Assembly (NCBI GenBank): GCA_016700015.1
Contig: CP064995.1
Coordinates: 960,001-992,000, forward strand
Reading direction: 5' to 3'
From: Candidatus Saccharimonadota bacterium
GTDB lineage: Bacteria > Patescibacteriota > Saccharimonadia > Saccharimonadales > Saccharimonadaceae
DNA length: 32,000 bases
The position numbers and the translations under genes are program-made. Position 1 is the first letter of the stretch; each line of letters opens with the position of its first letter. This document shows, in pieces, positions 9,770 to 27,783 of this stretch. Below the pieces are notes generated by a model, which made no database searches, was not told the DNA's origin, and worked only from the letters and a program-made list of their open reading frames with translations.

Positions 9770-12700
9770 CTACTTGTTACTGAAGGCAAAGTTGAGGTTA
9801 CCGACGTAGGCATTGGCGTTTTTGCTGGTAGTCATGTCGATCTTGAAGACGATACTGTTGCCAGGCGCAAAGCCACAGGTCGATGGGTCGGCGGCACCGG
9901 TTGCGTTCCCGATTTGCCACGAAGTCTGTGTGCCGGTCGATACGCTGATGGTTGACCCGCAGGCGGTAAGGCCTGTGCCGCTGTTGCGGTAGATCTGGTA
10001 TTGCACCGTCGCCGAACCACCATTGCTGCCGTTGTCGGTACGGCCCATGAGCGATGTCTGACCTGAGTTGAATTCTTTGAAGGTACTTGGTAACTGGTAA
10101 GTAACGTAGATTGCATAGGTCTGTGCGGTCGCCTGCGGGCTGGTCCATTTGTAGAAGTTGTAGGTCTCGTTGGTACCGCAAATGGTTGGTTGTGCAGGGC
10201 TGCCGCTGCCGTCGTTGATGTTGAGGTAGTCCGAGCAGAGGTCGCTCGTCATGGTGCCGATACCGGTGCCGTGTAGCACTGCGTTGGTATACTCTGGGCT
10301 GATAGTGACAATGTTGTCCGGGCTCGAACCACAAGCACCCCAGCCGTCTGCCTCGTAACACTGCAGCTTGCCGAGCGTTGTGTCGTAGTACATGCTCCCG
10401 AGCAAAGCGTCGTTGTTGCTGGCGATGGGCGCACTGGCGCCTTTGTCGAGTGTGAAGAGTGTGGTTGGGCCACCATTGATACCACCGCCGACCTGAACAT
10501 TTGGTGTCGTGATGCTGGCGAGCGTCATACTGAAAGAGTCAACAGCGAAGGTGCGTACGCCCGAAGCGGCCTCGACGAAGTAGACATAGGGGTTAGTTGC
10601 GGTATTGGCGTCAGTCTGGATGTAACAGGTGACCTTTGTCCAGGCAGTGGTGACGAGCGTCTGTGTATTGTAGTCAACACAATCGACGTAGTCGCCAGCG
10701 GTAGTTGAAGTGCTGCCAAGATAGCTATAGCGGACCTTAAAATCGGTAAATGCGGCGCCAGAGATGAGTTTGCCATAAACGGTGACGCGGTAGAGTGTCG
10801 AGCTCAGTGGGTTCGACGACAGTTTGTTGCGGATGCCGGCGTTGGCAGCACCAGTGGTGACGGCAGCTTGTGCACTGTCGCTAGCGTCGTTGCCATCACT
10901 TGTGATGCGGGAGCTCGTCACGGTACCCTGGCCAGAGTTGGGCCAGTTGGTAGCGTAATTGCCTGAGTCATTCACGCTACCATCGGTCGCAAAGTTATAG
11001 TCAGCGGCAATAGTGACACTGAGATTGTCAACGTAGAAGCTACGTGTCGCACTGGCAGTTTGGCGAATGAGGATCGCGTTGCCGCTGGTGATACCACTAG
11101 CGGGCGTCGTGAAGGTGCAGTTGACCTTGGTCCAGATACTTGTGTTGACAGCTGAGGTGGCACCACAAGCAGTGAGGAGGGTAGTGTTGCCATCAGCCGA
11201 ATATTGCACGTTGAGGTCTGTAAACGTACTTGAACCGCTGGTGAGACGAGTAGTGAAGCTGACGTTGTAGGTAGTGTTGGCTGTCAAGGCGGCGGCGCTA
11301 CCACTGCTATTGATGAGTTGGTTTTTGGCACCACTGTTAGCGGCGGTTGCGGCAATCGATACAGAACCTTGACCAGTGGCGATATAGCTACCGGCGACAT
11401 TTTGGCGGGTGACCGTGGCAGTACCGGTGCTACTCCAAGTGCTGGCCGGGAAGGTTGTGGCACTGGCACCAGCAGTCTCTGCACCGGCATTGCTGGCATA
11501 TTCAGTGACATTGCTGTTGACCTGGAGCAAGCCTGCCGCGCTTTTTGTCTGGACGCTGAGGAGCGTACCATTCACAGGGTTGGTAGAGCTATCACGAATG
11601 GTCAGACCATTGGTCGCACTGGTTTTACTGACGACGAGTTCGGCGCCACCGGCGCTCTGGAGTGTGTTGTCGTAGGCAGCCTGGAGGGTAGTCGAGCTCG
11701 ATGCACCCGCAGCCGTCCAATCAGCGCCATTCCAGATCATCGTTGCGGTTGTATTCTTACGCATTGCAATCTGATTGCCTTGGCCGCCACCATTGACACT
11801 CAGTGTAAAGTCCTTTGTGAGATTTGATGCAGTCACGTAAACGACGCGTCCAGCAGTTGCAATACTTGGATCTGGGAGGGTTGCTGTTTGTCCATCCTGG
11901 GTAAACCCGACGATGACAGAAGCATAGTTGTTGACGGATGTCTGAGCGACAGTACATCCAGATGATGAGGTTGATTCAGTGCCACTTGGGAAACAGTTGG
12001 CATCATTGGCGATCGTCTGGAAGGCTGACGTATTGAGTATAACAAGACCGTTTGATGTGGTACCGGTTCCACCGGCCAGAGTGAGGTTGCCGCCAGTCGT
12101 ACCAGTTGCGCTATTACCACCCTGGATGAGCACTGCACCACCCACTCCAGTTGTACCACTGGTAGCACCCTGGATGGTGAGCTGCTGCCCAGCTTGGCCG
12201 GCAGTGGTTTGTGTAGTTTTTTGGATAGTGGTTGTGGTGGTGGCATTACCAACCATTATCTTGTCCGAAACAAGCTTAATACCATTGGTTGCACCGGCAG
12301 TCAGTGTGACGGTGTTAGCAGCGCTCCCGGCATTTCCTATATTGACATCACCATTGACGGTTGTTTGGAGGTTAACCGCACCTCGCACCCCTGAACCTGT
12401 TGGTGCGCCACCGATAATGTTAACCGCACCACCGGCTTGGTTAGTGCCGTTACCACCACCACCTTGTAACGTTAGGGAGCGTCCCGCTCCTGTGCTCGTG
12501 TTTGTATTGACCCCGATGATCCGATCAGTTCCACCGCCGAAACTGAGGTCATATGATGCGGTTTCGCCGTTTGCTAAGGCTATACCGACACGGTTATTTG
12601 TCGTATCAGCAAGCAGGACACTCGCTTGAGCGGCATTTTGAACACTAAATGCGCTCGTCGAATCGATGCTATTACGAAGGGTCAACCGTCCGGTGTTAGT

Positions 12701-14614
12701 GAGTTGGAGTAAAGAAGTGGTGGCTCCATACGAATCGTAGGTAGATGAGGTTTGCACTGTTGCGTAAAAAGCTGGCAAATCATTTGTAGGTGTTCCTGAT
12801 GCATTACCTGGCCAGCTAGAGGGGAGCGGGCCCCACGTTTGTCCGCTGTTGGTCCATGTAGCAACGTTTGTTCCACCACCAGTTGTCGTCCTAAAACAGT
12901 TTTGGTTAGTGGCGGTACCATTAGTGAAATAAACGATCCAGTAACTTGTACCACTTGTCACTGCTGTTGGGCTGACACTTACAGCGTTCCAACCGTTTAC
13001 AAGTGTTGTTGCACTACTCTGAGTAAGCAGGGTACCGGGTGTACCAGCATTATTAGTGAAAAGACCCATTCGGAACTGGTTGTTGGGTGACGCACTGATC
13101 GGACAAGTCATATAAACGGATAAGCTGATAACATTTCCGTTTACACCAGAACTGTACAGACCGGCTTCGAGTCGGCCGTTGTCGTCGTTGTCAGTTGCTG
13201 TTCCAGTCGTAGTATTACCAAATACACTCGTGCTGCTTGCAGCAAGGCCCGAGTTGATCTTGAAGGTTGAGTTATCACTCGCGTCAGCTCCTAGATACCA
13301 CGATTCGGAAGGCGTCTTAATTTGCAAGGTTGCATCACCTGTTCCTTTTTGCTCGATGAGGGTTTGAGGGTTTGATGTGACGCTATTGTTGACGGCGACT
13401 TGGAGTGTCGTCGTTGGTGCTCCCCCGGTTGCACCGACACCAACTCGGCTATTTGTAGTATCTACAGTGACGACATCCGACGTGCCGGCGGCATTTTGGA
13501 CTTTTAGAGCGGTAGCACTGTCCGTAAGTGGGCGAATAGCCGGTGCGTACACGGCACCACCAAAGTAGCCGTTGCGCCAAGTGTAGGTGCTTGAACCAAT
13601 GTCGATAGTATTCGCATAGGCCGTTCCTGGGGTGAGGCTGGCATTGATAGCGACGCCAGTGAGATTGTCTAGTTGGCGGGTTGCACCAGCCGATCCGCAG
13701 TTGGCGGCGGTTTGAAGACAAATTGTGTCGGTGGCAGCAGTTGAATCTGGCAAGATAATGGTTCGATTGGCAGTCAATACACTAGTTTGAAGCGTTAGGC
13801 TGTAGCCATCGGTTGTGCCATCGCTCAACACAAGCTTACCTTGGGTTACCGTGCCGCTGGTGGCAATGCGGCCGAGGGTGAGCTGGTTGCCGGTATTGTT
13901 GAAAGCAGCATTGATGTTTCCGGCACTGTCTTGCAGTCTGAACATATCGACTGTTTGGGCCGAGGCGCCTTGAACAACCGCGCCCACACTACTAGCACTG
14001 GCGCTCTGCACTGCGATATTAGCAGTCTGTACAGTTGTCGTATTCTGAATAAACCCACTAGCGTCACGACCACCAAGCATGGTGGCGTTCATCGCGTAGG
14101 CAACTGAAGAGAGGCGTTTCATAGGGAGCATTTCGTCATCAGGCGAACAGCTTGTGAAGGGCGTACATGTCGTGTTGGTATTGCCGATATTCATACTCAG
14201 CCACAAGGTGTCGGAGTTCCAGTCCACTTGAGTACCAAACGGATTGATAGACCCCAGCTGCACGGACATATAGCCATTGACAACTAAAACGCCCTGGCTC
14301 GAAGTATTAAGCCAGCTTTCAGTCCATTTCAAAGTACCACCAGGGTTACCGGCAGCAGTGCCGGTGCCGTCTTGATAGATCTTGAACTGGACGTTGTAGT
14401 AGCCGTCGGGCACAACAGCACCCTGGGCGTTCAACAGACGTCCTTGGAAATTCATTTGTTGGTTGGTGGCCGCGTGCGCAGCTGGTGCAGCAAAAATGCC
14501 AACACCAAATACGCCCAGTAGAAGGGCGCCTACAAATAGTATGCGCGTTAGCACACCAGCCAAGCTGATTGTGGTGTTTGTGTTAATGGTGGGTCCGGCT
14601 CCGATATTCGCCAA
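9770..14614 (-). CDS. giant (about 1600 aa) secreted adhesin-like surface protein with two CBM4/9-like modules
   Basis: Uninterrupted 4.8-kb frame. Signal peptide ...LTRILFVGALLLGVFGVGIFAAPAAHA/ATNQQ. Thr/Ser/Gly/Asn-rich beta-type sequence. Two jelly-roll-like modules end in SFYVDNLSVT (approx. 11010-11480) and TFAVDSFSMT (approx. 10520-10990). Ends with a double stop, TAGTAG. The track start at 14614 is TTG; GTG at 14554 (MLTRILFVG...) would give a textbook signal peptide. Confidence 0.85.
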   Translation of the reverse strand: MANIGAGPTINTNTTISLAGVLTRILFVGALLLGVFGVGIFAAPAAHAATNQQMNFQGRLLNAQGAVVPDGYYNVQFKIYQDGTGTAAGNPGGTLKWTESWLNTSSQGVLVVNGYMSVQLGSINPFGTQVDWNSDTLWLSMNIGNTNTTCTPFTSCSPDDEMLPMKRLSSVAYAMNATMLGGRDASGFIQNTTTVQTANIAVQSASASSVGAVVQGASAQTVDMFRLQDSAGNINAAFNNTGNQLTLGRIATSGTVTQGKLVLSDGTTDGYSLTLQTSVLTANRTIILPDSTAATDTICLQTAANCGSAGATRQLDNLTGVAINASLTPGTAYANTIDIGSSTYTWRNGYFGGAVYAPAIRPLTDSATALKVQNAAGTSDVVTVDTTNSRVGVGATGGAPTTTLQVAVNNSVTSNPQTLIEQKGTGDATLQIKTPSESWYLGADASDNSTFKINSGLAASSTSVFGNTTTGTATDNDDNGRLEAGLYSSGVNGNVISLSVYMTCPISASPNNQFRMGLFTNNAGTPGTLLTQSSATTLVNGWNAVSVSPTAVTSGTSYWIVYFTNGTATNQNCFRTTTGGGTNVATWTNSGQTWGPLPSSWPGNASGTPTNDLPAFYATVQTSSTYDSYGATTSLLQLTNTGRLTLRNSIDSTSAFSVQNAAQASVLLADTTNNRVGIALANGETASYDLSFGGGTDRIIGVNTNTSTGAGRSLTLQGGGGNGTNQAGGAVNIIGGAPTGSGVRGAVNLQTTVNGDVNIGNAGSAANTVTLTAGATNGIKLVSDKIMVGNATTTTTIQKTTQTTAGQAGQQLTIQGATSGTTGVGGAVLIQGGNSATGTTGGNLTLAGGTGTTSNGLVILNTSAFQTIANDANCFPSGTESTSSSGCTVAQTSVNNYASVIVGFTQDGQTATLPDPSIATAGRVVYVTASNLTKDFTLSVNGGGQGNQIAMRKNTTATMIWNGADWTAAGASSSTTLQAAYDNTLQSAGGAELVVSKTSATNGLTIRDSSTNPVNGTLLSVQTKSAAGLLQVNSNVTEYASNAGAETAGASATTFPASTWSSTGTATVTRQNVAGSYIATGQGSVSIAATAANSGAKNQLINSSGSAAALTANTTYNVSFTTRLTSGSSTFTDLNVQYSADGNTTLLTACGATSAVNTSIWTKVNCTFTTPASGITSGNAILIRQTASATRSFYVDNLSVTIAADYNFATDGSVNDSGNYATNWPNSGQGTVTSSRITSDGNDASDSAQAAVTTGAANAGIRNKLSSNPLSSTLYRVTVYGKLISGAAFTDFKVRYSYLGSTSTTAGDYVDCVDYNTQTLVTTAWTKVTCYIQTDANTATNPYVYFVEAASGVRTFAVDSFSMTLASITTPNVQVGGGINGGPTTLFTLDKGASAPIASNNDALLGSMYYDTTLGKLQCYEADGWGACGSSPDNIVTISPEYTNAVLHGTGIGTMTSDLCSDYLNINDGSGSPAQPTICGTNETYNFYKWTSPQATAQTYAIYVTYQLPSTFKEFNSGQTSLMGRTDNGSNGGSATVQYQIYRNSGTGLTACGSTISVSTGTQTSWQIGNATGAADPSTCGFAPGNSIVFKIDMTTSKNANAYVGNLNFAFSNK

Positions 14615-14851: not shown

Positions 14852-15811
14852 CTAGGCTGCCAACAAGAGGCCGCGCTTTTCGAGTAGACGCTTTTCGCGC
14901 CACTCACCAATCCAAAAACTTACTACCACGGCGAAGGTAGCAGCAAATAGCGGCCATAGTACCAGTAGCACATTAGTCGTTTCTTTGGTGGTAGCTGCTA
15001 CTGCGGCGTCAGGGTCGGGCTGGCCATTAACAATACTAGCTACGGTGATGAAGGCAACACGCCCGTCAGCATCGGTTGCCTGGACCGATAGTTGGTAGGT
15101 GCCGGCTTTCTGGTAAGTGTGGGCAGTGCGGAAGCTGGTGTTGTCGGGCCGCGATACTACTTTATTTGTGCTGTCGCCCCACTGAATGTTGATGGCATAT
15201 GGTGCGCGGCCACCGATGATGTCGAGCGGAATTGTCATTTCTTTACCTGGGAAAGTACCACGGAATACCGCATCGGTGTTGAGGAGTAGTTGTGGGCCGC
15301 CGAAATTGAGCTGAGCAAATGGGCTGCCAGTACCTGTGGGCGCGTCGAAATAAACCACCACACTACCCGAGTCCGGGCCGACTTGGTTGAGGGCATCAAA
15401 CACCTTTGCAACTAGTGTATTTTGGCCAATGAGTAGATCGATCTCAAAACTAAACGTTCCGTCGCTGGAGCACACTGCCGAACCGGCAAAGATATCATTT
15501 TTAAATAACTCAACAAGCGTGTCTTTAGGACAGGTTCCCGAAACGACCACAGGGGTTTGGCTAAAACGCTGGCCGCTGGTTGGTGTTTTGATTACTGCGG
15601 CAGTGGTTGGTGGCTTGCCGGGTACGGTGCCATACATACCTATCGATCCAGCGGCCGGACCTGGCCGCTCCCAAGCGGTTGCCGTGTAGGTAGTGAGGCA
15701 TACACCGACCACAAATAGTAATAGTGCCAGCGGTACATATGAGGTATGTTCGTGTGGTCGTACTTTTGCTGTGTGTTTGTGATGCGTCAGCTTCAATAGC
15801 TTCCTAAGCAT
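14852..15811 (-). CDS. membrane protein anchored at both ends with Ig-like and PKD-like ectodomains
   Basis: His-rich N-terminus MLRKLLKLTHHKHTAKVRPHEHTSY followed by the TM VPLALLLFVVGVCLTTY. Ig-like segment PVVVSGTCPKDTLVELFKNDIFAGSAVCSSDGTFSFEIDL. PKD-like segment YAINIQWGDST...HTYQKAGTYQLSVQATDADGR. C-terminal TM VLLVLWPLFAATFAVVVSFWIGEW plus a basic tail. Confidence 0.8.
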   Translation of the reverse strand: MLRKLLKLTHHKHTAKVRPHEHTSYVPLALLLFVVGVCLTTYTATAWERPGPAAGSIGMYGTVPGKPPTTAAVIKTPTSGQRFSQTPVVVSGTCPKDTLVELFKNDIFAGSAVCSSDGTFSFEIDLLIGQNTLVAKVFDALNQVGPDSGSVVVYFDAPTGTGSPFAQLNFGGPQLLLNTDAVFRGTFPGKEMTIPLDIIGGRAPYAINIQWGDSTNKVVSRPDNTSFRTAHTYQKAGTYQLSVQATDADGRVAFITVASIVNGQPDPDAAVAATTKETTNVLLVLWPLFAATFAVVVSFWIGEWREKRLLEKRGLLLAA

Positions 15812-15817
15812 GTGCCT

Positions 15818-15826
15818 AGTATACCA
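15818..15826 (-). promoter_or_regulatory. extended -10 (TGGTATACT) 6 nt upstream of the ATG at 15811, in leaderless geometry
   Basis: The minus strand reads AATTATGGTATACT-AGGCAC-ATG, inside the 28-nt gap after the DUF916-like gene. Confidence 0.45.
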
Positions 15827-15839
15827 TAATTGTTATTGC

Positions 15840-16838
15840 CTAGCGACGGCGGGAGCGGCGAGAGCGGCCAAGCAGGCGTTCGTTGTAGCGCAGGATAGCC
15901 GCACGAATTGCGATGATAGCGACGGTGAGCAGGAACAGTATCAGAAGGATAAGTCGCCAAGGAATAACCCAAAATGAGAGAGTTTGAGTTGTAGTAAGCT
16001 TATCGCCGTAGTTGAGCTTCAGCTCAGCAGTGTATCGTCCGAACAGGAAGCCGGTTCCTAGTGCAGCTTTGTCGAGTGGCTGAGTGAATTTGCGAACACT
16101 CTTGGGCAAAATATTACGCGCTTCGCTATTGACATTGATATTAACGACTGGTTTGCCAAACATATCTTTGACGAGTATGGTGCCGACAGGTTGTTCATAC
16201 ACATTGCCTTCATTATTGACACGCTCAACAAAATTAAACGGTATCTCTTCGAAAAATGTCGATTTTTTATCGTCTTTTTCCATATAAAATTCAGCAATCG
16301 TTAGTTTTTCAGTTGCCGCACCTTTGACGCGAATCAAAATCAGCGCTCCGAGACTCGGTGCGAGCGACACGCTACTGGTGGTGCCTGCTGGTGCACTTGC
16401 AGTGAAACGCACCACACCGTAGTAGCCGCCCGGTGCAGCATTCGCTGGTACTTTTATTTCGAGCGGAAGTTTTTCGAGCTGCTTAGGCTTTAGGGTAAGG
16501 TTTGGAAACTTGCTTACCCACGGTATAAGACTATAGGGGCTGGGCTCAGCATCGTCGGTAATCACTCGTGGATTACCGCTTTCGTCGCCACTTGCAGTAA
16601 AGTCATTAATCTCACTCGTGACGAACAGCGCTGAATTTGACACATCGCGGATTGCAATCTCCGATTTGATGGTTTCGCCCGGATCAACAACAAAGTTGAG
16701 TACGGGTGGTGCGATTTCAAGCGCTAGCCCTTGTTGATTGTTGGCTGGCGGGTCAACTGCACTTACCAGTGCGGTTGTAAAAAGCGTGACCGTGAAGCCT
16801 GCAATCAATGTGGTGATAATGGATAAGCTATATTTCAT
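15840..16838 (-). CDS. DUF916/DUF3324-like cell-surface protein (CscA/DufA-like): signal peptide, two beta-sandwich-like halves, C-terminal TM anchor
   Basis: Signal peptide MKYSLSIITTLIAGFTVTLFTTALVSA. The N-terminal half (LEIAPPVLNFVVDPGETIKSEIAIRDVSNSALFV...LTLKPKQLEKLPLEIKVPANAAPGGYYGVVRFTA) fits the DUF916 pattern as I remember it. The C-terminal half (KLTIAEFY...VNNEGNVYEQPVGTILVKD...ILPKSVRKF...GRYTAELKLNYGD) fits the DUF3324 pattern. TM WRLILLILFLLTVAIIAI plus RSRRSRRR tail. Start is 6 nt after the preceding gene's stop. Confidence 0.55.
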   Translation of the reverse strand: MKYSLSIITTLIAGFTVTLFTTALVSAVDPPANNQQGLALEIAPPVLNFVVDPGETIKSEIAIRDVSNSALFVTSEINDFTASGDESGNPRVITDDAEPSPYSLIPWVSKFPNLTLKPKQLEKLPLEIKVPANAAPGGYYGVVRFTASAPAGTTSSVSLAPSLGALILIRVKGAATEKLTIAEFYMEKDDKKSTFFEEIPFNFVERVNNEGNVYEQPVGTILVKDMFGKPVVNINVNSEARNILPKSVRKFTQPLDKAALGTGFLFGRYTAELKLNYGDKLTTTQTLSFWVIPWRLILLILFLLTVAIIAIRAAILRYNERLLGRSRRSRRR

Positions 16839-16844
16839 GGTGAT

Positions 16845-18002
16845 CTAATAGGTCGGAGTACAAATGTACGTTAAGGTGGTGCTATACGTACCTGCGGTCA
16901 GGTTACCGGCTACATTGGCGATGTATGAGATAGTGTATAACTGACCATTGGTCGGGCCGGTGCCGCCATTGTCACTGCCAGCTATTACATCACCGGTCGA
17001 AAACTTGAAGTTATTCACGACATTGTAGTCAGATGCCGGCTGGCCGCGTAGGTCTGTACCATTTGGCGCGGGGTTGATATCTGCACTCGAGCCTGGAAAA
17101 CTACTAATTCCGGTGGGACCGCCAGTGTTTGTGTTGGCGCGAAGGTTGAGACCGAACTGGTTAGAACCCTTAGACCCAGCCACTGGAGCATCGGCCGCTC
17201 CCGGCGCCATAGCGGTGATTGTACTGGTACCCGATGTAAGGGTTGGTCCATTGACTGTGATAACATATCCTGAAAAGGCATTGGTACTGGCGGCCATTTG
17301 TGACTTTGCGATTGCGGTATCTTGGGGGGAGAAGAGTTGGTTAAATTCGATGACACCAGTTGTAGCGGTTGTGCAGTCAGGTACTGAACCATTCATCGAT
17401 ATTGTGCCGCCGGTACAGAAGATGAGACTTTCGGGCATAACACCACTAAGCTGGATCGCTGTAGCGGTACTGGCTGCAACCGAACCGGTGTCGATGGCCG
17501 TACCGGTGCCGTCCAGGCTACTAAATGTGCTGATGCGGACGAAGAAGGTGTAGTTGGTCGTTGTCGGGTTCTTGATGTTGTTGAGCTGGATGACTAAGGC
17601 ACCGCCTGCTGGGTTGGACGCGGCAGCACGTTTGACGATGACACTATTGACAGTTGATGCATGCACAGACCAGCCCGTGACAGCGGAGCCCGTATCCGTA
17701 ACTCCAGTGACGATGGACGCATCCATACCAGTCGGGGCGGTGCAGGCGACTTTGGAAGCAACAGTACAATATTCAAAGAGCACTGAACCGAGTGCGGTGC
17801 CAAGGGTAGGTATGGTAAACGTCAGCTTGTGGTTGACATTGCCGCCAGGCAAAGAGCCACCGACATTACCAACACCGATCAATGTTAATGATCGAGACGT
17901 AATCTGGTCTGCACTGGCTAGTCCCGACTGCAAAGTGACAGTGACGCCCGCCGCAACCAGCAACACACTTAAAACGTATGCAACTCCCCTCACACTTTTC
18001 AT
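16845..18002 (-). CDS. secreted two-domain surface protein, large paralog A (WxL-like C-terminal domain)
   Basis: The ATG at 18002 gives the signal peptide MKSVRGVAYVLSVLLVAAGVTVTLQSGLASA/DQ. It is clearly paralogous to 18107-19333 (shared blocks FFVRISTxxSLDxTGxAIDxGxVAAST, LSGVMPESLxFCTG, ASTNAxSGYxITVNGPTLTSG, QFGLNL, YSTTLTYICTPT[YF]). The track start at 18038 is a TTG that coincides with a -35-like hexamer. Confidence 0.8.
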   Translation of the reverse strand: MKSVRGVAYVLSVLLVAAGVTVTLQSGLASADQITSRSLTLIGVGNVGGSLPGGNVNHKLTFTIPTLGTALGSVLFEYCTVASKVACTAPTGMDASIVTGVTDTGSAVTGWSVHASTVNSVIVKRAAASNPAGGALVIQLNNIKNPTTTNYTFFVRISTFSSLDGTGTAIDTGSVAASTATAIQLSGVMPESLIFCTGGTISMNGSVPDCTTATTGVIEFNQLFSPQDTAIAKSQMAASTNAFSGYVITVNGPTLTSGTSTITAMAPGAADAPVAGSKGSNQFGLNLRANTNTGGPTGISSFPGSSADINPAPNGTDLRGQPASDYNVVNNFKFSTGDVIAGSDNGGTGPTNGQLYTISYIANVAGNLTAGTYSTTLTYICTPTY

Positions 18003-18008
18003 GTCCGC

Positions 18009-18038
18009 AGTGTACCATAAGCAAGACAGCTTGGTCAA
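18009..18038 (-). promoter_or_regulatory. promoter in leaderless geometry for paralog A
   Basis: The minus strand has TTGACC (18033-18038)-18 nt (ending TGG)-TACACT (18009-14), then 6 nt (GCGGAC), then ATG at 18002. No SD. Confidence 0.45.
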
Positions 18039-18054
18039 ATACTTTCGCTAACAC

Positions 18055-18084
18055 AAGCTACCACCTGTTGATAAGTGGCAGCTT
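18055..18084 (-). terminator. stem-loop 22 nt downstream of the paralog B stop (no U tract)
   Basis: The minus strand reads AAGCTGCCAC-TTATCAACAG-GTGGTAGCTT: a 10-bp stem with one G-U pair and a 10-nt loop. It is followed by GTGTTAGCG, so it is not a canonical intrinsic terminator. Confidence 0.3.
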
Positions 18085-18106
18085 GGAGAAACCGGGAATG
18101 GATATG

Positions 18107-19333
18107 CTAGAAAGTAGGGGTACAGATGTACGTAAGGGTAGTGCTATAGGTACCAGCTGGCTGACTACCTGGCACATTGGCGATGTAACTGACAGTGTAG
18201 ATCTGGGCATCAGAGGCACCGAGGCTGCCATCATCACTTTGCGCCACAGTATTGCCATCAACGAATTTGAACTCGTCCGTCACGCCATAGTCGGTAGTTG
18301 GCTGGCCACGAAGGTTGGTACCGTTTGGTGCTGGGACGACAGCCGAACTGCCAATAGTAAAGGGGGCGGTAACAGTTTCGATGCCGGCTGAGACTGCAGC
18401 ATTATTTGCAACAAGGTTCAGGCCAAACTGTGCAGTACCACGTACGCGAGTGCCGCGTGTTGCCATACCAGCAATCGTGTTGCTACCAGAAGTAAGCGTT
18501 GGTCCATTGACGGTGATAGTATAGCCTGAGCCCGCGTTCGTACTGGCTGCCATCTGTGATAGTGAATACGCGGTGTCGGTTGGCGAGAATAGCTTGTTGA
18601 ACTGAATGATGCCATCGGTCGCTGTTGAGCAGTCTGGCACGCCAGATGGCAGGCCAGTATCGGTGCTAACGGTCGCACCAGTGCAGAAGACGAGCGATTC
18701 GGGCATGACACCGCTTAGTTCGATTGGGTCAGCGGTGCTAGCGGCAACCGTACCACGGTCGATAGCAGCGCCAGTGGTATCAAGACTGTTGTATGTTGAG
18801 ATGCGGACAAAGAATGTACCAAGTACCGAAGGGTTAATCATGTCTTTTATATTGACCGTGACGGCAGTATTCGCGGGCACAGCCGCCTGTGAGCCCGGTG
18901 AACGGGTTAGGTAGTAAACATTAACCGATGCGCCGTTAACCTTTGTAAGGCCAGTAATACCAGAAGTGGTACCGAGTGTCGCTGTTGTTGAATCGAGCCC
19001 CGTTGGTGCAACACAGGTCAATGCGCCGACGTCAGCCGCAGTGGTACAGTATTCAAACTTGATTGAGCCTACCGGCGTGGCAGTCACCGAAGGAAGTGTG
19101 AAGGTAAATACGTGGTTTGCTTTCGAGTTGATATTTGGCACCGCACCACTGGGGCGAGAACCACCATTAAGCCCGCTTGGGTTGGTATCTGCAGCTTGCA
19201 GAGTAAGTGATCTTGTGACGATCTGATCGGCGCTTGCTCGGTTGGCAGGGAACGCGAGCTGCGCCACTACGACTGTGACAAGCAAAAACACGCTAAGCGC
19301 GCGATGTATGGTGGTGGATATAGGTTTTTTCAT
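18107..19333 (-). CDS. secreted two-domain surface protein, large paralog B (WxL-like C-terminal domain)
   Basis: The ATG at 19333 gives MKKPISTTIHRALSVFLLVTVVVAQLAFPANRASA/DQ. See paralog A for the shared blocks. Ends ...AGTYSTTLTYICTPTF. Confidence 0.8.
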   Translation of the reverse strand: MKKPISTTIHRALSVFLLVTVVVAQLAFPANRASADQIVTRSLTLQAADTNPSGLNGGSRPSGAVPNINSKANHVFTFTLPSVTATPVGSIKFEYCTTAADVGALTCVAPTGLDSTTATLGTTSGITGLTKVNGASVNVYYLTRSPGSQAAVPANTAVTVNIKDMINPSVLGTFFVRISTYNSLDTTGAAIDRGTVAASTADPIELSGVMPESLVFCTGATVSTDTGLPSGVPDCSTATDGIIQFNKLFSPTDTAYSLSQMAASTNAGSGYTITVNGPTLTSGSNTIAGMATRGTRVRGTAQFGLNLVANNAAVSAGIETVTAPFTIGSSAVVPAPNGTNLRGQPTTDYGVTDEFKFVDGNTVAQSDDGSLGASDAQIYTVSYIANVPGSQPAGTYSTTLTYICTPTF

Positions 19334-19371
19334 GGTGGATTTTTGTTTTTTTGTTAAGGTTTCTACCAGAG

Positions 19372-19400
19372 ATATTACCATGAGCGTTGTAGTGTGTCAA
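19372..19400 (-). promoter_or_regulatory. near-consensus sigma70 promoter for paralog B
   Basis: The minus strand has TTGACA (19395-19400)-17 nt ending TGG-TAATAT (19372-19377). A leader of about 40 nt follows, A-rich (AACAAAAAAACAAAAATCCACC), before the ATG. Confidence 0.5.
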
Positions 19401-19458
19401 CAATTTTTACCATATTTTTCATATCACTATGCGTGATCAGTCTGCAGCCTGTGGATAA

Positions 19459-20199
19459 CTAATAGGTACCGGTCACGATCAGTGTCTGATAGCTAGTGTA
19501 AGTACCGCCAGGGGTGATGCCCGCGACATTGGCGAGGAAACTGATAGTATAAGTGGTCTTACCAGAGCTCTTTGGCGCACTGGCGATAGTTTCACCAGCT
19601 ACATAGCGAAATTCATTAGGTGTCGTGTAATCAGCATAATTTGGTGAGCTAGGCCCATTGCCAATCTGTCCAAAGCCAAACTGGCCATTGTCGAGATTAG
19701 CGCCAAAGCTTGCTGGCGATGTGTTAGCAACAAGATTGATACCAAACTGCTCAATGCCAGGCTGAGAGATATTGGTAGTTGTCATGGCGTTGATTGATCT
19801 CCCATTATGTGAAGGTGGTGTGCCGGTCAGCTGCACGGCGTAGCCATAGCTTGTGTAGTTGATAACAGTGAACGTGGCAGTTCCAGTTGACGCACTGTTA
19901 GCTGAAAATGTACCAAAGTCGATAAGCGCATTATTGACTGCAACACTCAGCACGGGGTCTGGACTAGTTTTTGATCCGGCATTAACTTGGAAGTTCGACG
20001 ATGCCGAGTTGCCAACTCCTAAATCACCGAACGCGGATTGCCCAATATAGCTTGATGAGCTTGATTGGGTCAGGCTGCCGGCCCCCACCGTCGGTTCATC
20101 GAATTTATAGTTGTTGGACTGCAACGTCTCGGCATGTGCAGGTGGTACGATAAGCGTTAGGCACACTAAGCATGCCAAAACAAATCGCCGCAGTTTCAT
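19459..20199 (-). CDS. secreted single-domain surface protein, small paralog (WxL-like)
   Basis: The ATG at 20199 gives the signal peptide MKLRRFVLACLVCLTLIVPPAHA/ETLQ. An N-terminal SxNY/F-type repeat region (SNNYKF, SSSYIG, SSNFQV) is followed by a domain collinear with the C-terminal domains of paralogs A and B (IDFGTFS, SYGYAVQLTG, QFGINLVANT, YTISFLANVAGITPGGTYTSYQTLIVTGTY). The longer track ORF (to 20340) would overlap the divergent gene and has no signal peptide. Confidence 0.75.
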   Translation of the reverse strand: MKLRRFVLACLVCLTLIVPPAHAETLQSNNYKFDEPTVGAGSLTQSSSSSYIGQSAFGDLGVGNSASSNFQVNAGSKTSPDPVLSVAVNNALIDFGTFSANSASTGTATFTVINYTSYGYAVQLTGTPPSHNGRSINAMTTTNISQPGIEQFGINLVANTSPASFGANLDNGQFGFGQIGNGPSSPNYADYTTPNEFRYVAGETIASAPKSSGKTTYTISFLANVAGITPGGTYTSYQTLIVTGTY

Positions 20200-20300: not shown

Positions 20301-21332
20301 ATGAGCGAAGAGCCAAAACAAGCTGATGGTAGCGCCGCACCAGCGCCAGAACTGCTCACCACCCAAGATACGGGTGATGCTAAGTTTGCGACCCCTGAGC
20401 AGTCGATGGCAGCCCATGTCGACCATGCGCCTGCTACTGCAGTGAAACGCCGTATCGCTTATCGCCCTTCGCACAAAGCCACTTTCATTGGCCTGGCGGT
20501 TGTCGCATTAATTCTAGGGCTCAACGCTGTTATTTTATCAGTTGTTATGAAAAACAACGCCGACGCCCAGGATGCCAAGGTAAAGAACGGTGTGACAATC
20601 AGTGCTAGTACCCTCGATAAATTAGGGGTTAGTCGCAACCCGGTGGGAAATGCCGAAACCGAGCTTGTCGTCGGTCCCAACAGCACCTTTAATGGCAAAG
20701 TAGTGATGGGTGGAGACCTATCAGTCGCGGGAGTATTGCAGCTTAATAATAAGTTTACCGCTAGCGACGCTAGCCTTGCTAAACTGCAAGCAGGCGATGT
20801 GCAGCTGGAAAAGCTCAATGTCAACGGTGATGGCACGGTGTCGACACTGAATCTGCGTAAGGATCTACAGGTAGCTGGTACCACGAGGTTACAGGGGCCG
20901 CTGACGGTGAATCAATTAACGACTATCAACAATAACCTTAATGTGGCTGGTAATCTGGCGATTGGCGGTACGCTATCGGTGCGCAATTTCCAAGTGTCGA
21001 ACCTGACAGTAGCGGGCCATTTGATCAGCTCTGGCGGCAAGCCAGGTGTCAGTGTCGGCGGGGGTGCAGGTAGCAACGGCACTGTATCGCTTGATGGCAA
21101 CGATACGAGTGGTACTGTGGCGGTGAACACGGGTGTCGGTGCTGGTAGCGGCCTACTCGCCACTATTACCTTTGCCGAGCGATTTGCCAGCACGCCGCGT
21201 GTCGTTGTCACGCCAATTGGTCGTGCAGTACCAGGCCTCTACATCAATCGCACGTCGACAGGCTTTACTATTAGTGCTGATGGTGCGCTGGCGCCCGGTG
21301 GCTATGCGTTTGACTATGTTGTTGTACAGTAA
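20301..21332 (+). CDS. membrane-anchored protein with a beta-helix-like repeat stalk and an H-type-lectin-like C-terminal domain
   Basis: Cytoplasmic N-terminus, then TM ATFIGLAVVALILGLNAVILSVVM. Repeats of the type LxVxGxxxLxG (LSVAGVLQLNN, LQVAGTTRLQG, LNVAGNLAIGG, LTVAGHLISSG). The C-terminus, GTVAVNTG...ATITFAERFASTPRVVVTPIG...LYINRTSTGFTISADG...YAFDYVVVQ, resembles the H_lectin pattern (F..F...P.V......v..t..GF.i). Confidence 0.7.
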   Translation: MSEEPKQADGSAAPAPELLTTQDTGDAKFATPEQSMAAHVDHAPATAVKRRIAYRPSHKATFIGLAVVALILGLNAVILSVVMKNNADAQDAKVKNGVTISASTLDKLGVSRNPVGNAETELVVGPNSTFNGKVVMGGDLSVAGVLQLNNKFTASDASLAKLQAGDVQLEKLNVNGDGTVSTLNLRKDLQVAGTTRLQGPLTVNQLTTINNNLNVAGNLAIGGTLSVRNFQVSNLTVAGHLISSGGKPGVSVGGGAGSNGTVSLDGNDTSGTVAVNTGVGAGSGLLATITFAERFASTPRVVVTPIGRAVPGLYINRTSTGFTISADGALAPGGYAFDYVVVQ

Positions 21333-21334
21333 CC

Positions 21335-23886
<2,552 letters not shown>

Positions 23887-23890
<4 letters not shown>

Positions 23891-25389
23891 GATTTTACCT
23901 CAATTTTTTTCTTGTCTCTTTTATCGCTCTGTTCTGGGGCGGCCTCGACTGGTTTTTCTTCCACCGGTGCGAGCATCTCGGCTCGGAATTTTGCCAGTAG
24001 TTCGGCTTCAAGTTTGTCGTAATCTTCTTCGGTGTGCATATCGACCCCGCGGCCTTTCACAGCTTGCTTGAGGCTGGCAACATCGATAGCGGCATCGGTG
24101 TCGTTATTCATAATCGTTTCGAGGAGTAGTTGTTGCTCGGGCAGTGAGAAAAGCTGCTCTGGTGGCTGGCCTAGCGCTTGGTAGAGGTGACGTCCACGGG
24201 CTAGGTCGATTCGTGTCTCTCTACTGAGCTGACTTGAAAAGTGCGAGAATTCTTCGGCCTGATGGTAATGGGCCAGCGCTTTGAAGAGGGCAGTTGAAAG
24301 CTGTTTTTGACGCTTGGTCTGAGCTTGGCCACCGACACGGCTGACTGAAAGTCCGGCATTGACAGCAGGTCGAATACCTTTGCGGAAATAGCCTAGGTCA
24401 AAAATAATCTGACCGTCAGTGATCGACATGATGTTAGTACTGAGGTAGGCAGTGATATCATCGTTTGGGGTCAGGACTACCGGGAGACTGGTGAGGGTCT
24501 TATCATTGGTCAGCAGCTTACCTGCCCGTTCTAAAAGACTAGAGTGTGTGTAGAATATATCGCCCGGGTAGCTGTCACGCCCAGGGTCGACTTCTTGCAG
24601 TAGTGACAGTTGACGATAGGCCTCGGCGTGGCTACTCAGGTCGTCATAGATGATGATGACATCTTGCCCGCCGTACCACAGATGCTCGGCCATACTACAG
24701 GCGGCGTAGGGTGCAATATAACTCTGGGTGAGGCTGTCGAAAATATTGGCAAGCACGACGATCGTGTGCTCCATCGCTCCACTACGTTGCAGCTCGCTAA
24801 GGAGCCGTTCGATGTCGACTTTGCGCTTGCCGACCAGCACATACACAACAATTCGATCAGTGCCTTGCTGGTTGGCGCTGAGTTGGCTTAAGAAAGTGCT
24901 TTTCCCAGACTTACTGTCGCCGAGGATAGCAATACGCTGGCCAAGGACAATTGGGAAGAAACTATCGACAGCACTGACGCCGCTCGCGAGCTGTTCATTG
25001 AGCATTTTGCGGTCCATAATTCCTGGCGCCGGGGTAAAGATACCGCTCGTATTTGCCGTACGCACCATGCCTTTACCATCGAGCGGTTCACCCATCGGAC
25101 TAATTACCCGGCCGACGAGCTCAGGCCCAACGGGCACCTGCAGTTGGTCGAACTGGACGACGGCTAGGGCGCCGAGTGCTACGTTTTCACTGTCGATGTT
25201 GTACAGAATTACGCGATCGCCATAGGCTTCGCGCACCATGCCGCGCTGGCCATCATCAAACAGCACCTGGGAACCGATACGTACGCCCTCGAGACCTTTC
25301 ACTTCGACAATGAAGCGGTTAATAGCCACAACCTCACCAGTTAGATTGCCAGCTTCAACAAGCTGCTGGAAGATTTGGTTATCAAACAC
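23887..25389 (-). CDS. atpA: F1 ATP synthase alpha subunit (divergent P-loop GDSKSGKST)
   Basis: RIAILGDSKSGKSTF (versus the canonical GDRQTGKT), DVIIIYDDLSSHAEAYRQLSLL, PGRDSYPGDIFYTHSSLLERAGK, and ITDGQIIFD. GTG start with a GAGGTG SD 7 nt upstream. Charged C-terminal tail. Confidence 0.9.
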
Positions 25390-25867
25390 GGGTCAGCACC
25401 TCACCAAATCGGTAGCGTTCATTAAGTATCGTTCGACGGAATGACCAGTCAAAAATCCGGCTGCCAAACCGTACAACCATACCGCCGAGTAGGGTAGAAT
25501 TGAAACGAAAACTAATAAGGATGTCAGGCGCGATATTACTGCGCGCCCATGCTACGAGGGCTTTTTTGACTTCATTTGTAGCCGGAGCGGCTAAGGTGAT
25601 TGTCATAACTTTTGCTTGCGCCTTGGTAGTTTCGAGCTGTGCGATTAGCGCTTCTAGGCTGGCGCTTGTCATACCATCAGCACTACGCGCGAGCTTTAGT
25701 ATTTCGATGGCAGCGGGTGAAAGTTCGGGCTGCGGTTGAGTATACTGCGTCTGCACTCTTTCGGCGATGACATATTGGTTAAACCATTTGGCGTAGCCAC
25801 GAATTTCGATAATCAAACTCATGAGGTCTTCTTTAGAGCTAATGGTAGCTGGGAGATTATACACCAT
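25382..25867 (-). CDS. atpH: ATP synthase delta (OSCP) subunit
   Basis: The C-terminus, ...ISFRFNSTLLGGMVVRFGSRIFDWSFRRTI, fits the OSCP pattern (iiGG..v..g....D.S). The ATG at 25867 is preceded by an AAGGAG SD 7 nt upstream (the track start at 25873 is TTG). Overlaps the end of atpF. Confidence 0.75.
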   Translation of the reverse strand: MVYNLPATISSKEDLMSLIIEIRGYAKWFNQYVIAERVQTQYTQPQPELSPAAIEILKLARSADGMTSASLEALIAQLETTKAQAKVMTITLAAPATNEVKKALVAWARSNIAPDILISFRFNSTLLGGMVVRFGSRIFDWSFRRTILNERYRFGEVLTRV

Positions 25868-26762
25868 TTTCAATCTCCTTTTTGAGCTCGTCTTTATGCT
25901 CTTCGAGCTGCGCGGTTAGGTAGGGAAGTTGGGCGCCCAGGTCGACATTGTGGCGCAGGGTTTCGGTCAGGAAAGCCGCCATCATATCACCGAGTTTCGC
26001 ATCGAGTTGGCTAGCGAGGGTATGGCGCCGTGCCTCCATTTCTTGGGTAAGCTTGTCTTCCATAGCGGCAAGGTGCGCAGCATGCTGTTTTTGGCGCTCC
26101 AAAAACTCGGCGTTTAAATCAGCCTGGTGTTGTGCTAGTACGGTTTCGCGCTGCTTGAGCGCGGCCTCAAGCTCTGTCTGGCGCTGAGCCAGCTGGGCTT
26201 CGGTTTCGGCCTGCTTGGCGGCGTAGTCGGCCTGCTTTTTTTGGAATTGTTCTTCAATCTCGCTATTGCGCGCAGCAAGTTTGGCCTGTAGTTCGGCTTC
26301 GTAGGCGCGGAGCTTGCTGTCCATTTCTTCCTGGCGAGCAGCAAATTTCTCGCGCATCTCGGTCTGGTGCTCAGCCAGCAGTGCTTGGGCGTTGGTAATA
26401 CTAGTGGCCGTGCCTTCACGCAGTTCGTCGAGGCCTTCACGGTAAAGACGCAGCTCGTCACTCATGATACCATCGCCCAGTTTGTCGAGCTCACGGCTTA
26501 ATTTTTCAGTTGTTGACTCAAGATTTTTCTGTAGCTCTTCGGCGTTCTTGCGCAGGATCTTCTGGTAATCTTCTTCGGCTTCGTCTAGAATCCGGCGCCG
26601 TGAATCGAGCGGCAGTATGGGCATGGCCTGCGGCGCAGTGGGTGAGGGCGCATCGGACTTAAAGTGCGCCCGTGCATGAGTAAAAGCGATCGTCGCTATA
26701 ACACCTACTACAAATACGTTGATGAGCAGGAAGACGGTTAGCAGTATATCCCCACCAAACAT
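25857..26762 (-). CDS. atpF: ATP synthase b-like peripheral-stalk subunit, unusually long (301 aa)
   Basis: Single N-terminal TM (ILLTVFLLINVFVVGVIATIAFT) followed by ~260 aa of Ala/Glu/Gln/Lys/Arg-rich helix. Sits immediately upstream of atpH. Confidence 0.65.
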   Translation of the reverse strand: MFGGDILLTVFLLINVFVVGVIATIAFTHARAHFKSDAPSPTAPQAMPILPLDSRRRILDEAEEDYQKILRKNAEELQKNLESTTEKLSRELDKLGDGIMSDELRLYREGLDELREGTATSITNAQALLAEHQTEMREKFAARQEEMDSKLRAYEAELQAKLAARNSEIEEQFQKKQADYAAKQAETEAQLAQRQTELEAALKQRETVLAQHQADLNAEFLERQKQHAAHLAAMEDKLTQEMEARRHTLASQLDAKLGDMMAAFLTETLRHNVDLGAQLPYLTAQLEEHKDELKKEIENGV

Positions 26763-27600: not shown

Positions 27601-27665
27601 GTCGTTCTTGTCCCCTCTATGCACACTAGTATAGCGAAAAAGCATGAGTATTACTACTGCTAGCA

Positions 27666-27674
27666 TGCTACAAT
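27666..27674 (+). promoter_or_regulatory. candidate extended -10 (TGCTACAAT) 10 nt upstream of the mini-pilin ATG
   Basis: Plus strand reads CATGCTACAATTTACTCTAGAATG. No SD, so the leader would be very short or absent. Confidence 0.35.
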
Positions 27675-27684
27675 TTACTCTAGA

Positions 27685-27783
27685 ATGAAGCGTCAAGCAG
27701 GATTTACAGTACTGGAGCTGATTGTGGTGGTCGTCGCGATCATCATACTACTGGTCATCGCCTACCTCGCGGCGCGCCAATAG
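27685..27783 (+). CDS. 32-aa peptide consisting only of a type IV prepilin-type leader plus hydrophobic alpha-1N helix
   Basis: I translated this myself; it is below the ORF-track cutoff. MKRQAGFTVLELIVVVVAIIILLVIAYLAARQ*. It matches the prepilin cleavage/methylation motif (K/R)xxG|FT(L/V)(I/L)EL with Glu at +5. TAG at 27781-27783, 8 nt before the next ATG. Confidence 0.5.
   Translation: MKRQAGFTVLELIVVVVAIIILLVIAYLAARQ

Follow-up and report, generated by a model that had tools for sequence, protein, structure and literature searches.

We found that a cluster of five minus-strand genes at positions 14852-20199 of the window (the whole 32,000-nucleotide stretch of DNA analysed) very probably represents a Pam pilus operon in compact form, from a bacterium of the Candidatus Saccharibacteria (CPR). 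CPR bacteria are ultrasmall parasites that live attached to other microbes and account for much of bacterial diversity. One of their surface structures, recently described, is the Pam pilus, a thin filament whose cryo-EM structure was obtained from Ca. Mycosynbacter amalyticus (Troman et al., bioRxiv 10.64898/2026.03.03.709456). There, PamA and PamB filaments are joined by donor strands, and the pilus is thought to form by donor-strand exchange (bioRxiv 10.64898/2026.03.03.709456). [quoted passage not shown] Filaments were seen in M. amalyticus; what can be established for the locus of the present Saccharibacterium is family membership, predicted folds and synteny. The cluster is not the Csc/WxL surface complex that an initial annotation had proposed, yet its putative chaperone is distantly related to the Firmicutes WxL-interacting protein (WxLIP).

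The reading as a Pam operon is based on PamT, the Pam pilin C domain of both large pilins and PamR all passing the cutoffs of curated NCBIfam models (NF058579, PamT equivalog; NF058581, Pam pilin C domain; NF058578, PamR equivalog). It is further based on a gene set and neighbourhood that are the same as those in the preprint, on the fold matches of PamT and a 332-aa protein together with synteny in 66-79 of 80 species loci, and on the organism being a Saccharibacterium whose cluster lacks the LPXTG motif. In GenBank, the cluster proteins are deposited as 'hypothetical' or 'PKD domain-containing'. All five secreted-protein genes of the initial annotation were recovered as co-directional minus-strand ORFs. 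No LPXTG motif was found in any of seven cluster proteins (these five plus two giant proteins), no cluster protein scanned had a Pfam sortase match, and the Pfam matches of 12 proteins in and around the cluster included no usher family.

The first gene of the cluster (19459..20199, minus strand) encodes PamT, a small single-domain tip pilin of 246 aa. It matched NF058579 over its full length with 268.2 bits (cutoff 240) and NF058581 with 141.5 bits (cutoff 55). A signal peptide (MKLRRFVLACLVCLTLIVPPAHA) and a low-confidence linker precede the common C-terminal pilin domain, which is modelled by AF2 (pLDDT 72) with seven beta strands over residues 84-245. In a structure search, the best PDB folds were chaperone-usher pilins, namely CfaB, the PapG pilin domain, PapA and Csu, all as weak matches (E-values of 2e-3 to 1e-2, TM-scores of 0.3-0.58).

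The two large paralogs are two-domain Pam pilins. Pilin 1 (18107..19381, minus strand; ORF of 424 aa; deposited as the 408-aa QQS21896.1) combines an N-terminal beta-sandwich domain with the Pam pilin C-terminal domain and scored 134.2 bits against NF058581 (cutoff 55), while pilin 2 (16845..18038, minus strand; ORF of 397 aa) scored 120.8 bits against the same cutoff of 55 and is deposited as a 385-aa protein starting at 18002 (QQS21895.1). Pilin 1 has cysteine pairs at residues 96/107 and 217/235 as well as Cys404, numbered according to a 408-aa form discussed below. The full ORFs share 50% identity (E-value of 2e-115), and PamT aligns to the C-terminal 140 aa of pilin 1 with 33% identity (E-value of 3e-15). 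Three paralogs with a common C-terminal domain had been recognised from the start, and these similarities are far above chance. The motifs reported for that domain are also present, including IDFG, IQFN and IEFN, then GYAVQL, GYTITV and GYVITV, and finally a terminal GTYTSYQTLIVTGTY or GTYSTTLTYICTPT(F/Y). Trp is absent from the pilin C-terminal domains.

Downstream of the pilins, a gene at 15840..16838 (minus strand) encodes the 332-aa protein, a putative membrane-anchored assembly chaperone judging by its position, architecture and fold. As initially described, it has a signal peptide, a GG.YG motif and a C-terminal TM helix (residues 294-328) with a basic tail (RSRRSRRR). The motif is part of an invariant P..PGGYYGV.RF, and two beta-sandwich domains are present both in the architecture and, along with the TM helix, in the AF2 model (pLDDT 78), where a loop at residues ~79-107 is conserved but of low confidence. 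None of the NCBIfam Pam models matched this protein, so its identity as PamC or PamD rests on position, architecture and fold; position and architecture suggest that it is PamC/PamD-like. Its family is very large, with 8875 representatives at 50% identity.

We next consider the relation of this protein to WxLIP, which consists of DUF916, DUF3324 and a TM segment and is found in WxL/Csc clusters of Lactobacillales and Listeria (PMC1534035; PMC10599100; PDB 9i1y, 9i25). Foldseek placed Enterococcus faecium WxLIP at the top of its PDB matches (9i25_C, E-value of 3.5e-11; 9i1y, 4.6e-11), followed by RbmA (4kkp, 5e-10) and then the chaperones CfaA, SafB, Caf1M, DraB and FimC (3e-8 to 4e-7). In hhalign comparisons with verified WxLIP, the family reached Prob 92-94% (E-values of 1e-7 to 5e-7) over ~215 columns spanning both domains, with reversed-sequence controls giving P of about 0.01-0.02. 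Conversely, Pfam DUF916 (PF06030) scored 14.6 bits, under its threshold of 27.3, and DUF3324 (PF11797) had no Pfam match in the protein. Among 40 homologues, 33 had weak matches to Pfam WxLIP_PGBD and one to PapD_N (E-value of 0.033). The proposed DUF916/DUF3324-like assignment is supported by fold and profile comparison but not by Pfam, and we regard the protein as a remote WxLIP homologue that is not a member by Pfam's rule. The Pam preprint (bioRxiv 10.64898/2026.03.03.709456) does not mention WxL, so the link to WxLIP is absent there, and the remote homology between Pam chaperone and WxLIP is a point added by the present analysis.

The last gene of the cluster (14852..15811, minus strand) encodes PamR, the RbmA-like terminator or anchor of 319 aa, which scored 359.6 bits against NF058578 (cutoff 300). 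PamR has two Ig/FnIII-like domains, a C-terminal TM helix and an N-terminal hydrophobic segment, either signal peptide or anchor. Of the doubly anchored Ig/PKD protein that had been described, the C-terminal anchor is retained; the N-terminal segment is possibly cleaved off as a signal peptide, and the Pfam PKD, Ig and Big matches are weak. PamR shares tandem FnIII/Ig domains with Vibrio cholerae RbmA and is named RbmA-like by NCBIfam. However, RbmA is a soluble matrix protein, whereas PamR is TM-anchored.

Two giant genes lie directly downstream of the cluster, as had been noted. The nearer one (9770..14614, minus strand) encodes a secreted fibre-like protein of 1614 aa that had no match in Pfam, NCBIfam or PHROG; in 69 of 80 loci, a homologue is found in the corresponding place. 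Its companion of 2174 aa (3201..9725, minus strand) is less conserved, with homologues in 39 of the 80. This protein contains Kelch beta-propellers (Pfam Kelch families, E-value of 5e-38) and two glycine-rich blocks with a weak Gly_rich_2 match, and is similar to PHROG_863 'tail fiber assembly' (E-value of 5.9e-15). On the opposite side, a divergent gene (20301..21332, plus strand) encodes a 343-aa membrane-anchored protein with beta-helix-like repeats and weak matches to Bactofilin, H_lectin and PHROG_36281; 69 of 80 loci have a homologue there, likewise divergent. It is followed by F-type ATP synthase genes (epsilon, beta, gamma, alpha, delta and b; 21335..26762, minus strand), recognised from ORF translations and syntenic with the operon in 66-67 of 80 loci.

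Gene order was compared across 80 Saccharibacteria species loci. The order atpAGDC, 343-aa gene, PamT, pilins, chaperone, PamR and giant gene is conserved in 66-79 of them. PamT and PamR are each present in 76 loci, and the chaperone family has exactly one copy in 79. One small pilin, two large pilins and one chaperone form the commonest content (61/80), which is also that of the present locus. A co-occurrence check in related genomes had been suggested, and small pilin, large pilins, chaperone and PamR indeed occur together across this set. The architecture initially outlined, with small and large C-domain paralogs, a two-domain protein between signal peptide and TM helix, an anchored Ig protein and giant genes downstream, was likewise borne out.

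The locus resembles that of M. amalyticus in having PamT, two-domain pilins and PamR above curated cutoffs, a TM-anchored two-domain chaperone-like protein, an adjoining ATP synthase and giant fibre-like gene, and a CPR host. M. amalyticus possesses two chaperones (PamC and PamD) and three large pilins (bioRxiv 10.64898/2026.03.03.709456). The present locus is leaner, with one chaperone instead of PamC and PamD, and two ~38-kDa pilins without the 55-kDa PamA-sized subunit. It thus represents a lean form of the operon, with tip pilin, two shaft pilins, one chaperone and anchor, that is the commonest in Saccharibacteria.

In the proposed assembly, all five products would be exported via Sec. The three paralogs would act as pilins, each with the common C-terminal domain, an Ig-like fold that is incomplete and leaves a groove open. 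The 332-aa protein, kept in the membrane by its C-terminal helix, would be the chaperone that lends a strand to this groove (donor-strand complementation), and during polymerisation the chaperone strand would give way to the linker strand of the incoming two-domain pilin (donor-strand exchange). PamT is predicted to have the groove but no donor strand, and would therefore cap the distal tip. The two ~38-kDa pilins would form the shaft, and PamR would insert an N-terminal strand into the last pilin while its C-terminal helix anchors the fibre. The N-terminal donor strand of PamR is described in the preprint, where the chaperone role and assembly order are AlphaFold predictions (bioRxiv 10.64898/2026.03.03.709456). 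For the present organism, we infer the assembly order, chaperone role and function. No usher, sortase or ATPase would take part. By their fold matches, the predicted incomplete Ig-like pilin and the putative two-domain chaperone recall chaperone-usher pili (Pap, Fim, CFA/I, Caf1 and Csu). In contrast to these, the present system has neither usher nor outer membrane, its chaperone is TM-tethered, its pilins have an additional N-terminal domain and sequence similarity is essentially nil. The filament probably establishes initial contact with the bacterial host, a step for which the Pam pilus is a leading candidate in CPR bacteria. A guess at host attachment in an episymbiont, made from the sequence alone, agrees with this.

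Alternatively, the cluster could encode a Csc/WxL-type complex, in which the paralogs are WxL proteins that attach to peptidoglycan without covalent bonds, with a WxLIP organising them into a surface complex instead of a filament. WxL proteins are regarded as peptidoglycan-bound and not filamentous. [quoted passage not shown] Besides the remote homology of the 332-aa family to WxLIP, the C-terminal motif NVpG..GtYttTLTY resembles L.VPG....YtTtLTW (18 columns, P 0.0045). Pam pilins also fill 84 of the top 100 places for the WxL HMM among 1079 locus ORFs, always through the C-terminal strand and without enrichment for a reversed HMM, although this is effectively one observation since the counted sequences are related. 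Against this, Pfam WxL (PF13731) matched none of 44 Pam C-terminal-domain proteins at E<=1, nor any of the three paralogs. Comparisons by hhalign with 20-30 genuine WxL domains gave Prob 2.5-8%, within the range of reversed controls. The best folds of PamT are chaperone-usher pilins, with the WxL chain of 9i25 absent from its best 50 matches, and homologues in M. amalyticus were observed as filaments by cryo-EM (bioRxiv 10.64898/2026.03.03.709456). The C-terminal domains also lack Trp, no LPXTG protein is present and the phyla differ. Csc clusters reportedly include CscD, an LPXTG-anchored partner. Together, these results make a WxL complex very unlikely. Of the initial proposal, the DUF916/DUF3324-like call survives in part, while the identification of the paralogs as WxL proteins does not: the best, if weak, fold matches of PamT are pilins and the TasA fibre, an outcome named beforehand as refuting it.

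The TasA match raises the possibility of a TasA/camelysin-like or sortase-type Gram-positive fibre, formed by chaperone-free strand complementation or by covalent sortase joining. The TasA fibre 8aur_A ranks sixth among the PamT fold matches (E-value of 4e-3), and CPR cells, like Gram-positive bacteria, have no outer membrane usher. Still, chaperone-usher pilins outrank TasA and make up most of the PamT list, curated Pam models match, a dedicated chaperone-like gene is found in nearly all loci, and the cluster has neither LPXTG motif nor sortase, so that we find such a fibre hardly credible. That these are unrelated secreted Ig-fold adhesins or envelope proteins, merely adjacent and without a joint structure, would agree with their deposited annotations and with how common Ig-like folds and weak matches to them are, but it is just as improbable given the conserved order and content across the 80-species set, the tight gaps between pilin 2 and chaperone (6 nt) and between chaperone and PamR (28 nt), the curated equivalog matches and the orthologous proteins found in filaments by cryo-EM (bioRxiv 10.64898/2026.03.03.709456).

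Beyond the identification as a Pam operon, we tentatively suggest, as a possibility we hold to be less than even, that Pam pili and Firmicutes WxL/Csc clusters have branched from one ancient donor-strand system, without an usher, of single-membrane bacteria. Common ancestry of the Pam chaperone and WxLIP is supported by the hhalign probabilities and top folds above. Divergence of the Pam pilin C domain and the WxL domain from one strand-accepting beta-sandwich is not supported beyond the ~20-residue C-terminal motif. If true, donor strands may link WxL proteins into short chains, with the small WxL protein as a cap and the large one as an adhesive subunit, and WxLIP would act not as a host-membrane anchor but as a tethered chaperone. 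The literature searched contained no link between WxL and donor strands other than one general review. Since 2006 it has been unclear how WxL clusters work; the homology offers a concrete mechanistic hypothesis for them and a possible evolutionary origin of Pam pili.

A strong promoter had been proposed for each paralog. Good sites precede both large pilins, but the small PamT gene has no upstream sigma-70-like site scoring at least 9/12, and nine sigma-70-like sites in the scanned region, compared to 6.1 +/- 2.7 in shuffles, indicate no region-wide excess. The pilin 2 ATG (18002) is preceded by a promoter-like TTGACC-18-TACACT with TG (18009..18038, minus strand; consensus match only). A consensus scan placed the other, TTGACA-17-TAATAT with an extended TG, upstream of pilin 1 (19372..19400, minus strand). 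This promoter-like site falls within the 424-aa ORF but before the start annotated in GenBank (M17, 19333), which supports the 408-aa form of pilin 1 and makes M17 its likely true start.

The five co-directional genes at 14852-20199 (minus strand) form a further operon of the Pam pilus, a system already known from NCBIfam models and from a 2026 preprint in which the Pam names originate (10.64898/2026.03.03.709456). They are transcribed in the order small paralog (246 aa, 19459-20199), pilin 1 (424-aa ORF, 18107-19381), pilin 2 (397-aa ORF, 16845-18038), a 332-aa protein (15840-16838) and a 319-aa protein (14852-15811), followed by two giant genes encoding proteins of 1614 and 2174 aa. Pilin 2, the 332-aa gene and the 319-aa gene are separated by just 6 and 28 nt. 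A signal-peptide-like segment is present at the start of all five operon proteins, and a C-terminal TM helix in two of them, those of 332 and 319 aa; an LPXTG motif was found in none of the five. The two large pilins are 50% identical (E 2e-115), and the small paralog is 33% identical to their C-terminal 140 residues (E 3e-15). The initial annotation had described secreted proteins with a shared domain, a set of motifs, and small and large paralogs combined with an anchor protein; the ORFs, the paralogy and the motifs are all present, and the architecture had been read correctly. It had also given each paralog a strong promoter of its own. Two good promoter-like sites do lie immediately 5' of the two large pilin genes, but the nine sites in the scan are no excess over shuffled sequences (6.1 +/- 2.7). 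The best site (TTGACA-17-TAATAT with TG, minus strand, within 19333-19400) falls inside the 424-aa ORF, which favours the GenBank start at M17 (position 19333, 408 aa). The true start of the 397-aa ORF is probably the ATG at 18002, as in GenBank (385 aa).

Pfam returned no match for the three paralogs, WxL included, and weak, sub-threshold PKD/Ig matches for the 319-aa protein. GenBank labels all five products hypothetical or 'PKD domain-containing', and the 332-aa protein is identical to its entry IPM09_05300, on a Candidatus Saccharibacteria contig of 1.01 Mb. Curated assignments were taken from NCBIfam release 20. Its equivalog models place the small paralog as PamT at 268 bits (cutoff 240) and the 319-aa protein as PamR at 360 bits (cutoff 300), and its model of the Pam pilin C-terminal domain recognises the two large proteins at 134 and 121 bits (cutoff 55). 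Each large pilin contains two cysteine pairs and a fifth, unpaired cysteine four residues before the C-terminus, in a conserved TYICTPT(Y/F), which could form an inter-subunit or chaperone-linked disulfide; mature PamT has no cysteine.

The preprint describes the system in Ca. Mycosynbacter amalyticus, a parasitic CPR bacterium, for which two filaments were solved by cryo-EM; their subunits are the two-domain pilins PamA and PamB, joined by donor-strand exchange in which each subunit uses its linker strand to complete the C-terminal domain, a truncated Ig-like fold, of the subunit after it (10.64898/2026.03.03.709456). Based on AlphaFold models, the same source proposes PamT as a tip pilin consisting of the domain only, without a donor strand, PamE as a further pilin, PamC and PamD as PapD/FimC-like chaperones with a C-terminal TM helix, and PamR as an RbmA-like anchor; the operon's neighbours there are ATP synthase genes and a gene resembling those for tail fibres (10.64898/2026.03.03.709456). 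The M. amalyticus accessions are WP_260763277/284 for PamC/PamD and WP_260763280/285/287 for PamB/PamE/PamA. The neighbourhood found in the window is exactly this one. The window differs in having one chaperone rather than two, and two large pilins, neither the size of the 55-kDa PamA, rather than three; it contains no additional pilin or chaperone copies. A role in host attachment by an episymbiont, which the initial annotation had guessed at, agrees with the view taken in the preprint. When the PDB was queried by sequence, using the 424-aa pilin, the 332-aa protein and the profiles of both families, nothing relevant emerged at E<=10, so PamA/PamB and WxLIP, the DUF916/DUF3324 protein of Firmicutes WxL clusters, are unreachable by sequence alone.

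The three paralogs had been taken for WxL proteins. This was rejected in favour of Pam pilins, given the NCBIfam assignments and the best fold matches, which are to donor-strand pilins. Compared by hhalign in full, trimmed, small-only, large-only, greedy and global variants, the Pam C-terminal domains matched WxL at Prob 0.2-8% (P 0.004-0.28), never above controls; the same method joined PamT to the large pilin domains at 100% and small to large WxL domains at 98%. The pilin domains contain no tryptophan. A short likeness is seen in the last strand (NVpG..GtYttTLTY in Pam, L.VPG....YtTtLTW in WxL), through which Pam pilins always entered when a WxL HMM was run over 1079 locus ORFs and placed them at 84 of the top 100. 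The reversed HMM gave no such enrichment, no single Pam pilin score was significant, and the enrichment counts as one observation because the pilins are mutually related. The structural comparison with WxL proposed in the initial annotation led to donor-strand pilins: the single-chain PamT model (pLDDT 72), with a seven-strand domain at residues 84-245, best matched the CfaB trimer, the PapD-bound PapG pilin domain, PapA, FimF/G and Csu, with the TasA fibre also among the matches. Each of these is weak (E 2e-3 to 1e-2), and the best 50 do not include the WxL chain of 9i25. Pilin matches were an outcome that the initial annotation had itself named as one that would refute the WxL reading.

The initial annotation was closer with the 332-aa protein, which it called DUF916/DUF3324-like. 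Although its Pfam match to DUF916 (WxLIP_PGBD) is sub-threshold (E 0.033, 14.6 bits, cutoff 27.3), profile comparison and fold point to a remote WxLIP homologue, not a Pfam member. For the comparison, 67 metagenome loci were retrieved by the published motif NQ(I/V/M)DKxxxYFDLK; a motif scan of viral contigs gave no match. Where complete, the retrieved ORFs all end in a TM helix and basic tail, most are about 340-360 aa long, and their neighbours are WxL proteins. Pfam verified both comparison sets (WxLIP_PGBD and WxLIP_HBD in 14/14, WxL in 20/20). The family of the 332-aa protein, the putative chaperone, aligned with WxLIP over 215 columns (Prob 94.1%, E 1.3e-7) and, in a second run, 217 columns (92.3%, 5.4e-7), spanning both domains and leaving out the TM helix. 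The controls speak for this match: reversed alignments gave P 0.01-0.02, and the chaperone family gave no match to PamR. Weak WxLIP_PGBD matches occur in 33 of 40 chaperone homologues (best 9.9e-5), PapD_N in one. A separate hhalign match of PamR to WxLIP (77%, 72 columns) was discounted as composition-driven, lying in the C-terminal TM region.

The single-chain model of the 332-aa protein, built from the 40 homologues (pLDDT 78), contains two beta-sandwiches and, at residues 294-328, a TM helix. Its best Foldseek match in the PDB was 9i25_C ('WxLIP from Enterococcus faecium locus A bound to long WxL', E 3.5e-11), followed by free WxLIP (9i1y, E 4.6e-11), RbmA, and the chaperone-usher chaperones CfaA, SafB, Caf1M, DraB and FimC (E 3e-8 to 4e-7); as TM-scores are alike (0.3-0.43) and domain angles differ, this ranking rests on the local 3Di+AA score. 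A low-confidence loop (81-95) lies within a stretch dense in invariant residues (D79, F80, E86, G88, P90, P101, Y102, W107). In free WxLIP the hairpin is disordered, and it is predicted to turn into a strand that occupies the gap in the WxL sandwich (PMC10599100); by analogy the conserved, unstructured chaperone loop at 79-107 is a candidate donated strand.

Donated strands join the subunits of M. amalyticus, as shown by cryo-EM (10.64898/2026.03.03.709456). In the scheme that homology, fold and synteny suggest for the window, all five products would be exported by Sec, and the TM-tethered 332-aa chaperone would cap the open groove of each pilin domain until the following two-domain pilin displaced it with its own linker strand. 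PamT would cap the tip and PamR would terminate and anchor the fibre, with assembly proceeding without usher, sortase or ATPase. A common origin of Pam pili and WxL clusters, in a single donor-strand system that single-membrane bacteria operated without an usher, is a more doubtful matter; we regard it as conceivable, though somewhat against the odds. The pilus itself had been described before. A link from its chaperone to WxLIP was not found in the literature searched, where 'WxL' and 'donor strand' occurred together only in one general review, and the preprint mentions neither WxL nor DUF916 (10.64898/2026.03.03.709456).

Scanning one genome per GTDB species yielded 80 loci, with every lineage-named record from Saccharibacteria/Saccharimonadales or wider Patescibacteria and the others labelled uncultured bacterium. 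By tblastn, 66-79 of these loci retain the arrangement atpA-G-D-C, divergent 343-aa gene, PamT, pilins, chaperone, PamR, 1614-aa homologue, with absences mostly at contig ends. By HMM counts, 61 of the 80 have the window's content, in which a small pilin and two large ones accompany a single chaperone; the lean operon of the window is thus the common form.

The chaperone-like family comprises 8875 cluster representatives at 50% identity (E<=1e-3), 1294 of them with E<=1e-30; the best 150 of the 8875 all have E < 1e-53. Some representatives of 630-800 aa have two or three matched stretches (P0319, P0320, P0338) and may be tandem or fused forms. Among plasmids, the only tblastn match to the 332-aa protein was marginal (Deinococcus sp. 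NW-56, NZ_CP026517.1, 313961-314857; 24% identity over 239 aa, E = 1). The Deinococcus protein (298 aa, hypothetical) has a weak WxLIP_PGBD match (E 0.016), and its gene lies among hypothetical genes and adjoins one for a 1013-aa SdrD_B/CarboxypepD_reg protein. The 298-aa protein could represent a further remote branch of the family, outside CPR and Firmicutes. In the metagenome Firmicutes-type loci, one WxLIP gene is often preceded by three to four small WxL genes and a very large one (1100-1640 aa), which exceeds the scheme of one WxLIP with two WxL proteins.

Divergent from PamT, the 343-aa protein (20301-21332, plus strand) has an N-terminal TM segment, beta-helix-like repeats and weak matches to Bactofilin, H_lectin and PHROG_36281. 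It is not named in the accessible text of the preprint (10.64898/2026.03.03.709456), and since a homologue holds this position in 69 of the 80 loci, it may belong to the Pam system. The secreted 1614-aa protein (9770-14614, minus strand) had no match in Pfam, NCBIfam or PHROG; it contains 18 cysteines, many close together in sequence, and a homologue lies directly downstream of PamR in 69 of the 80 loci. It is probably the 'tail fibre-like' neighbour of the preprint. Kelch beta-propeller repeats (E 5e-38) occur in the 2174-aa protein (3201-9725, minus strand), along with two long stretches rich in glycine; these stretches match Pfam Gly_rich_2 and a phage PHROG annotated as 'tail fiber assembly' (E 5.9e-15). 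Only 39 of the 80 loci have a homologue of this protein. A 309-aa protein without a Pfam match (26767-27696, minus strand) is encoded upstream of the ATP synthase genes and comprises a signal peptide, an extracellular part rich in Ser, Thr and Val, and a pair of TM segments at its C-terminal end. The F-type ATP synthase itself (21335-26762, minus strand) has unusual subunits: the putative b subunit (301 aa) has a long Glu/Ala/Gln-rich coiled-coil, and the beta subunit (480 aa) ends in an acidic, proline-rich tail.
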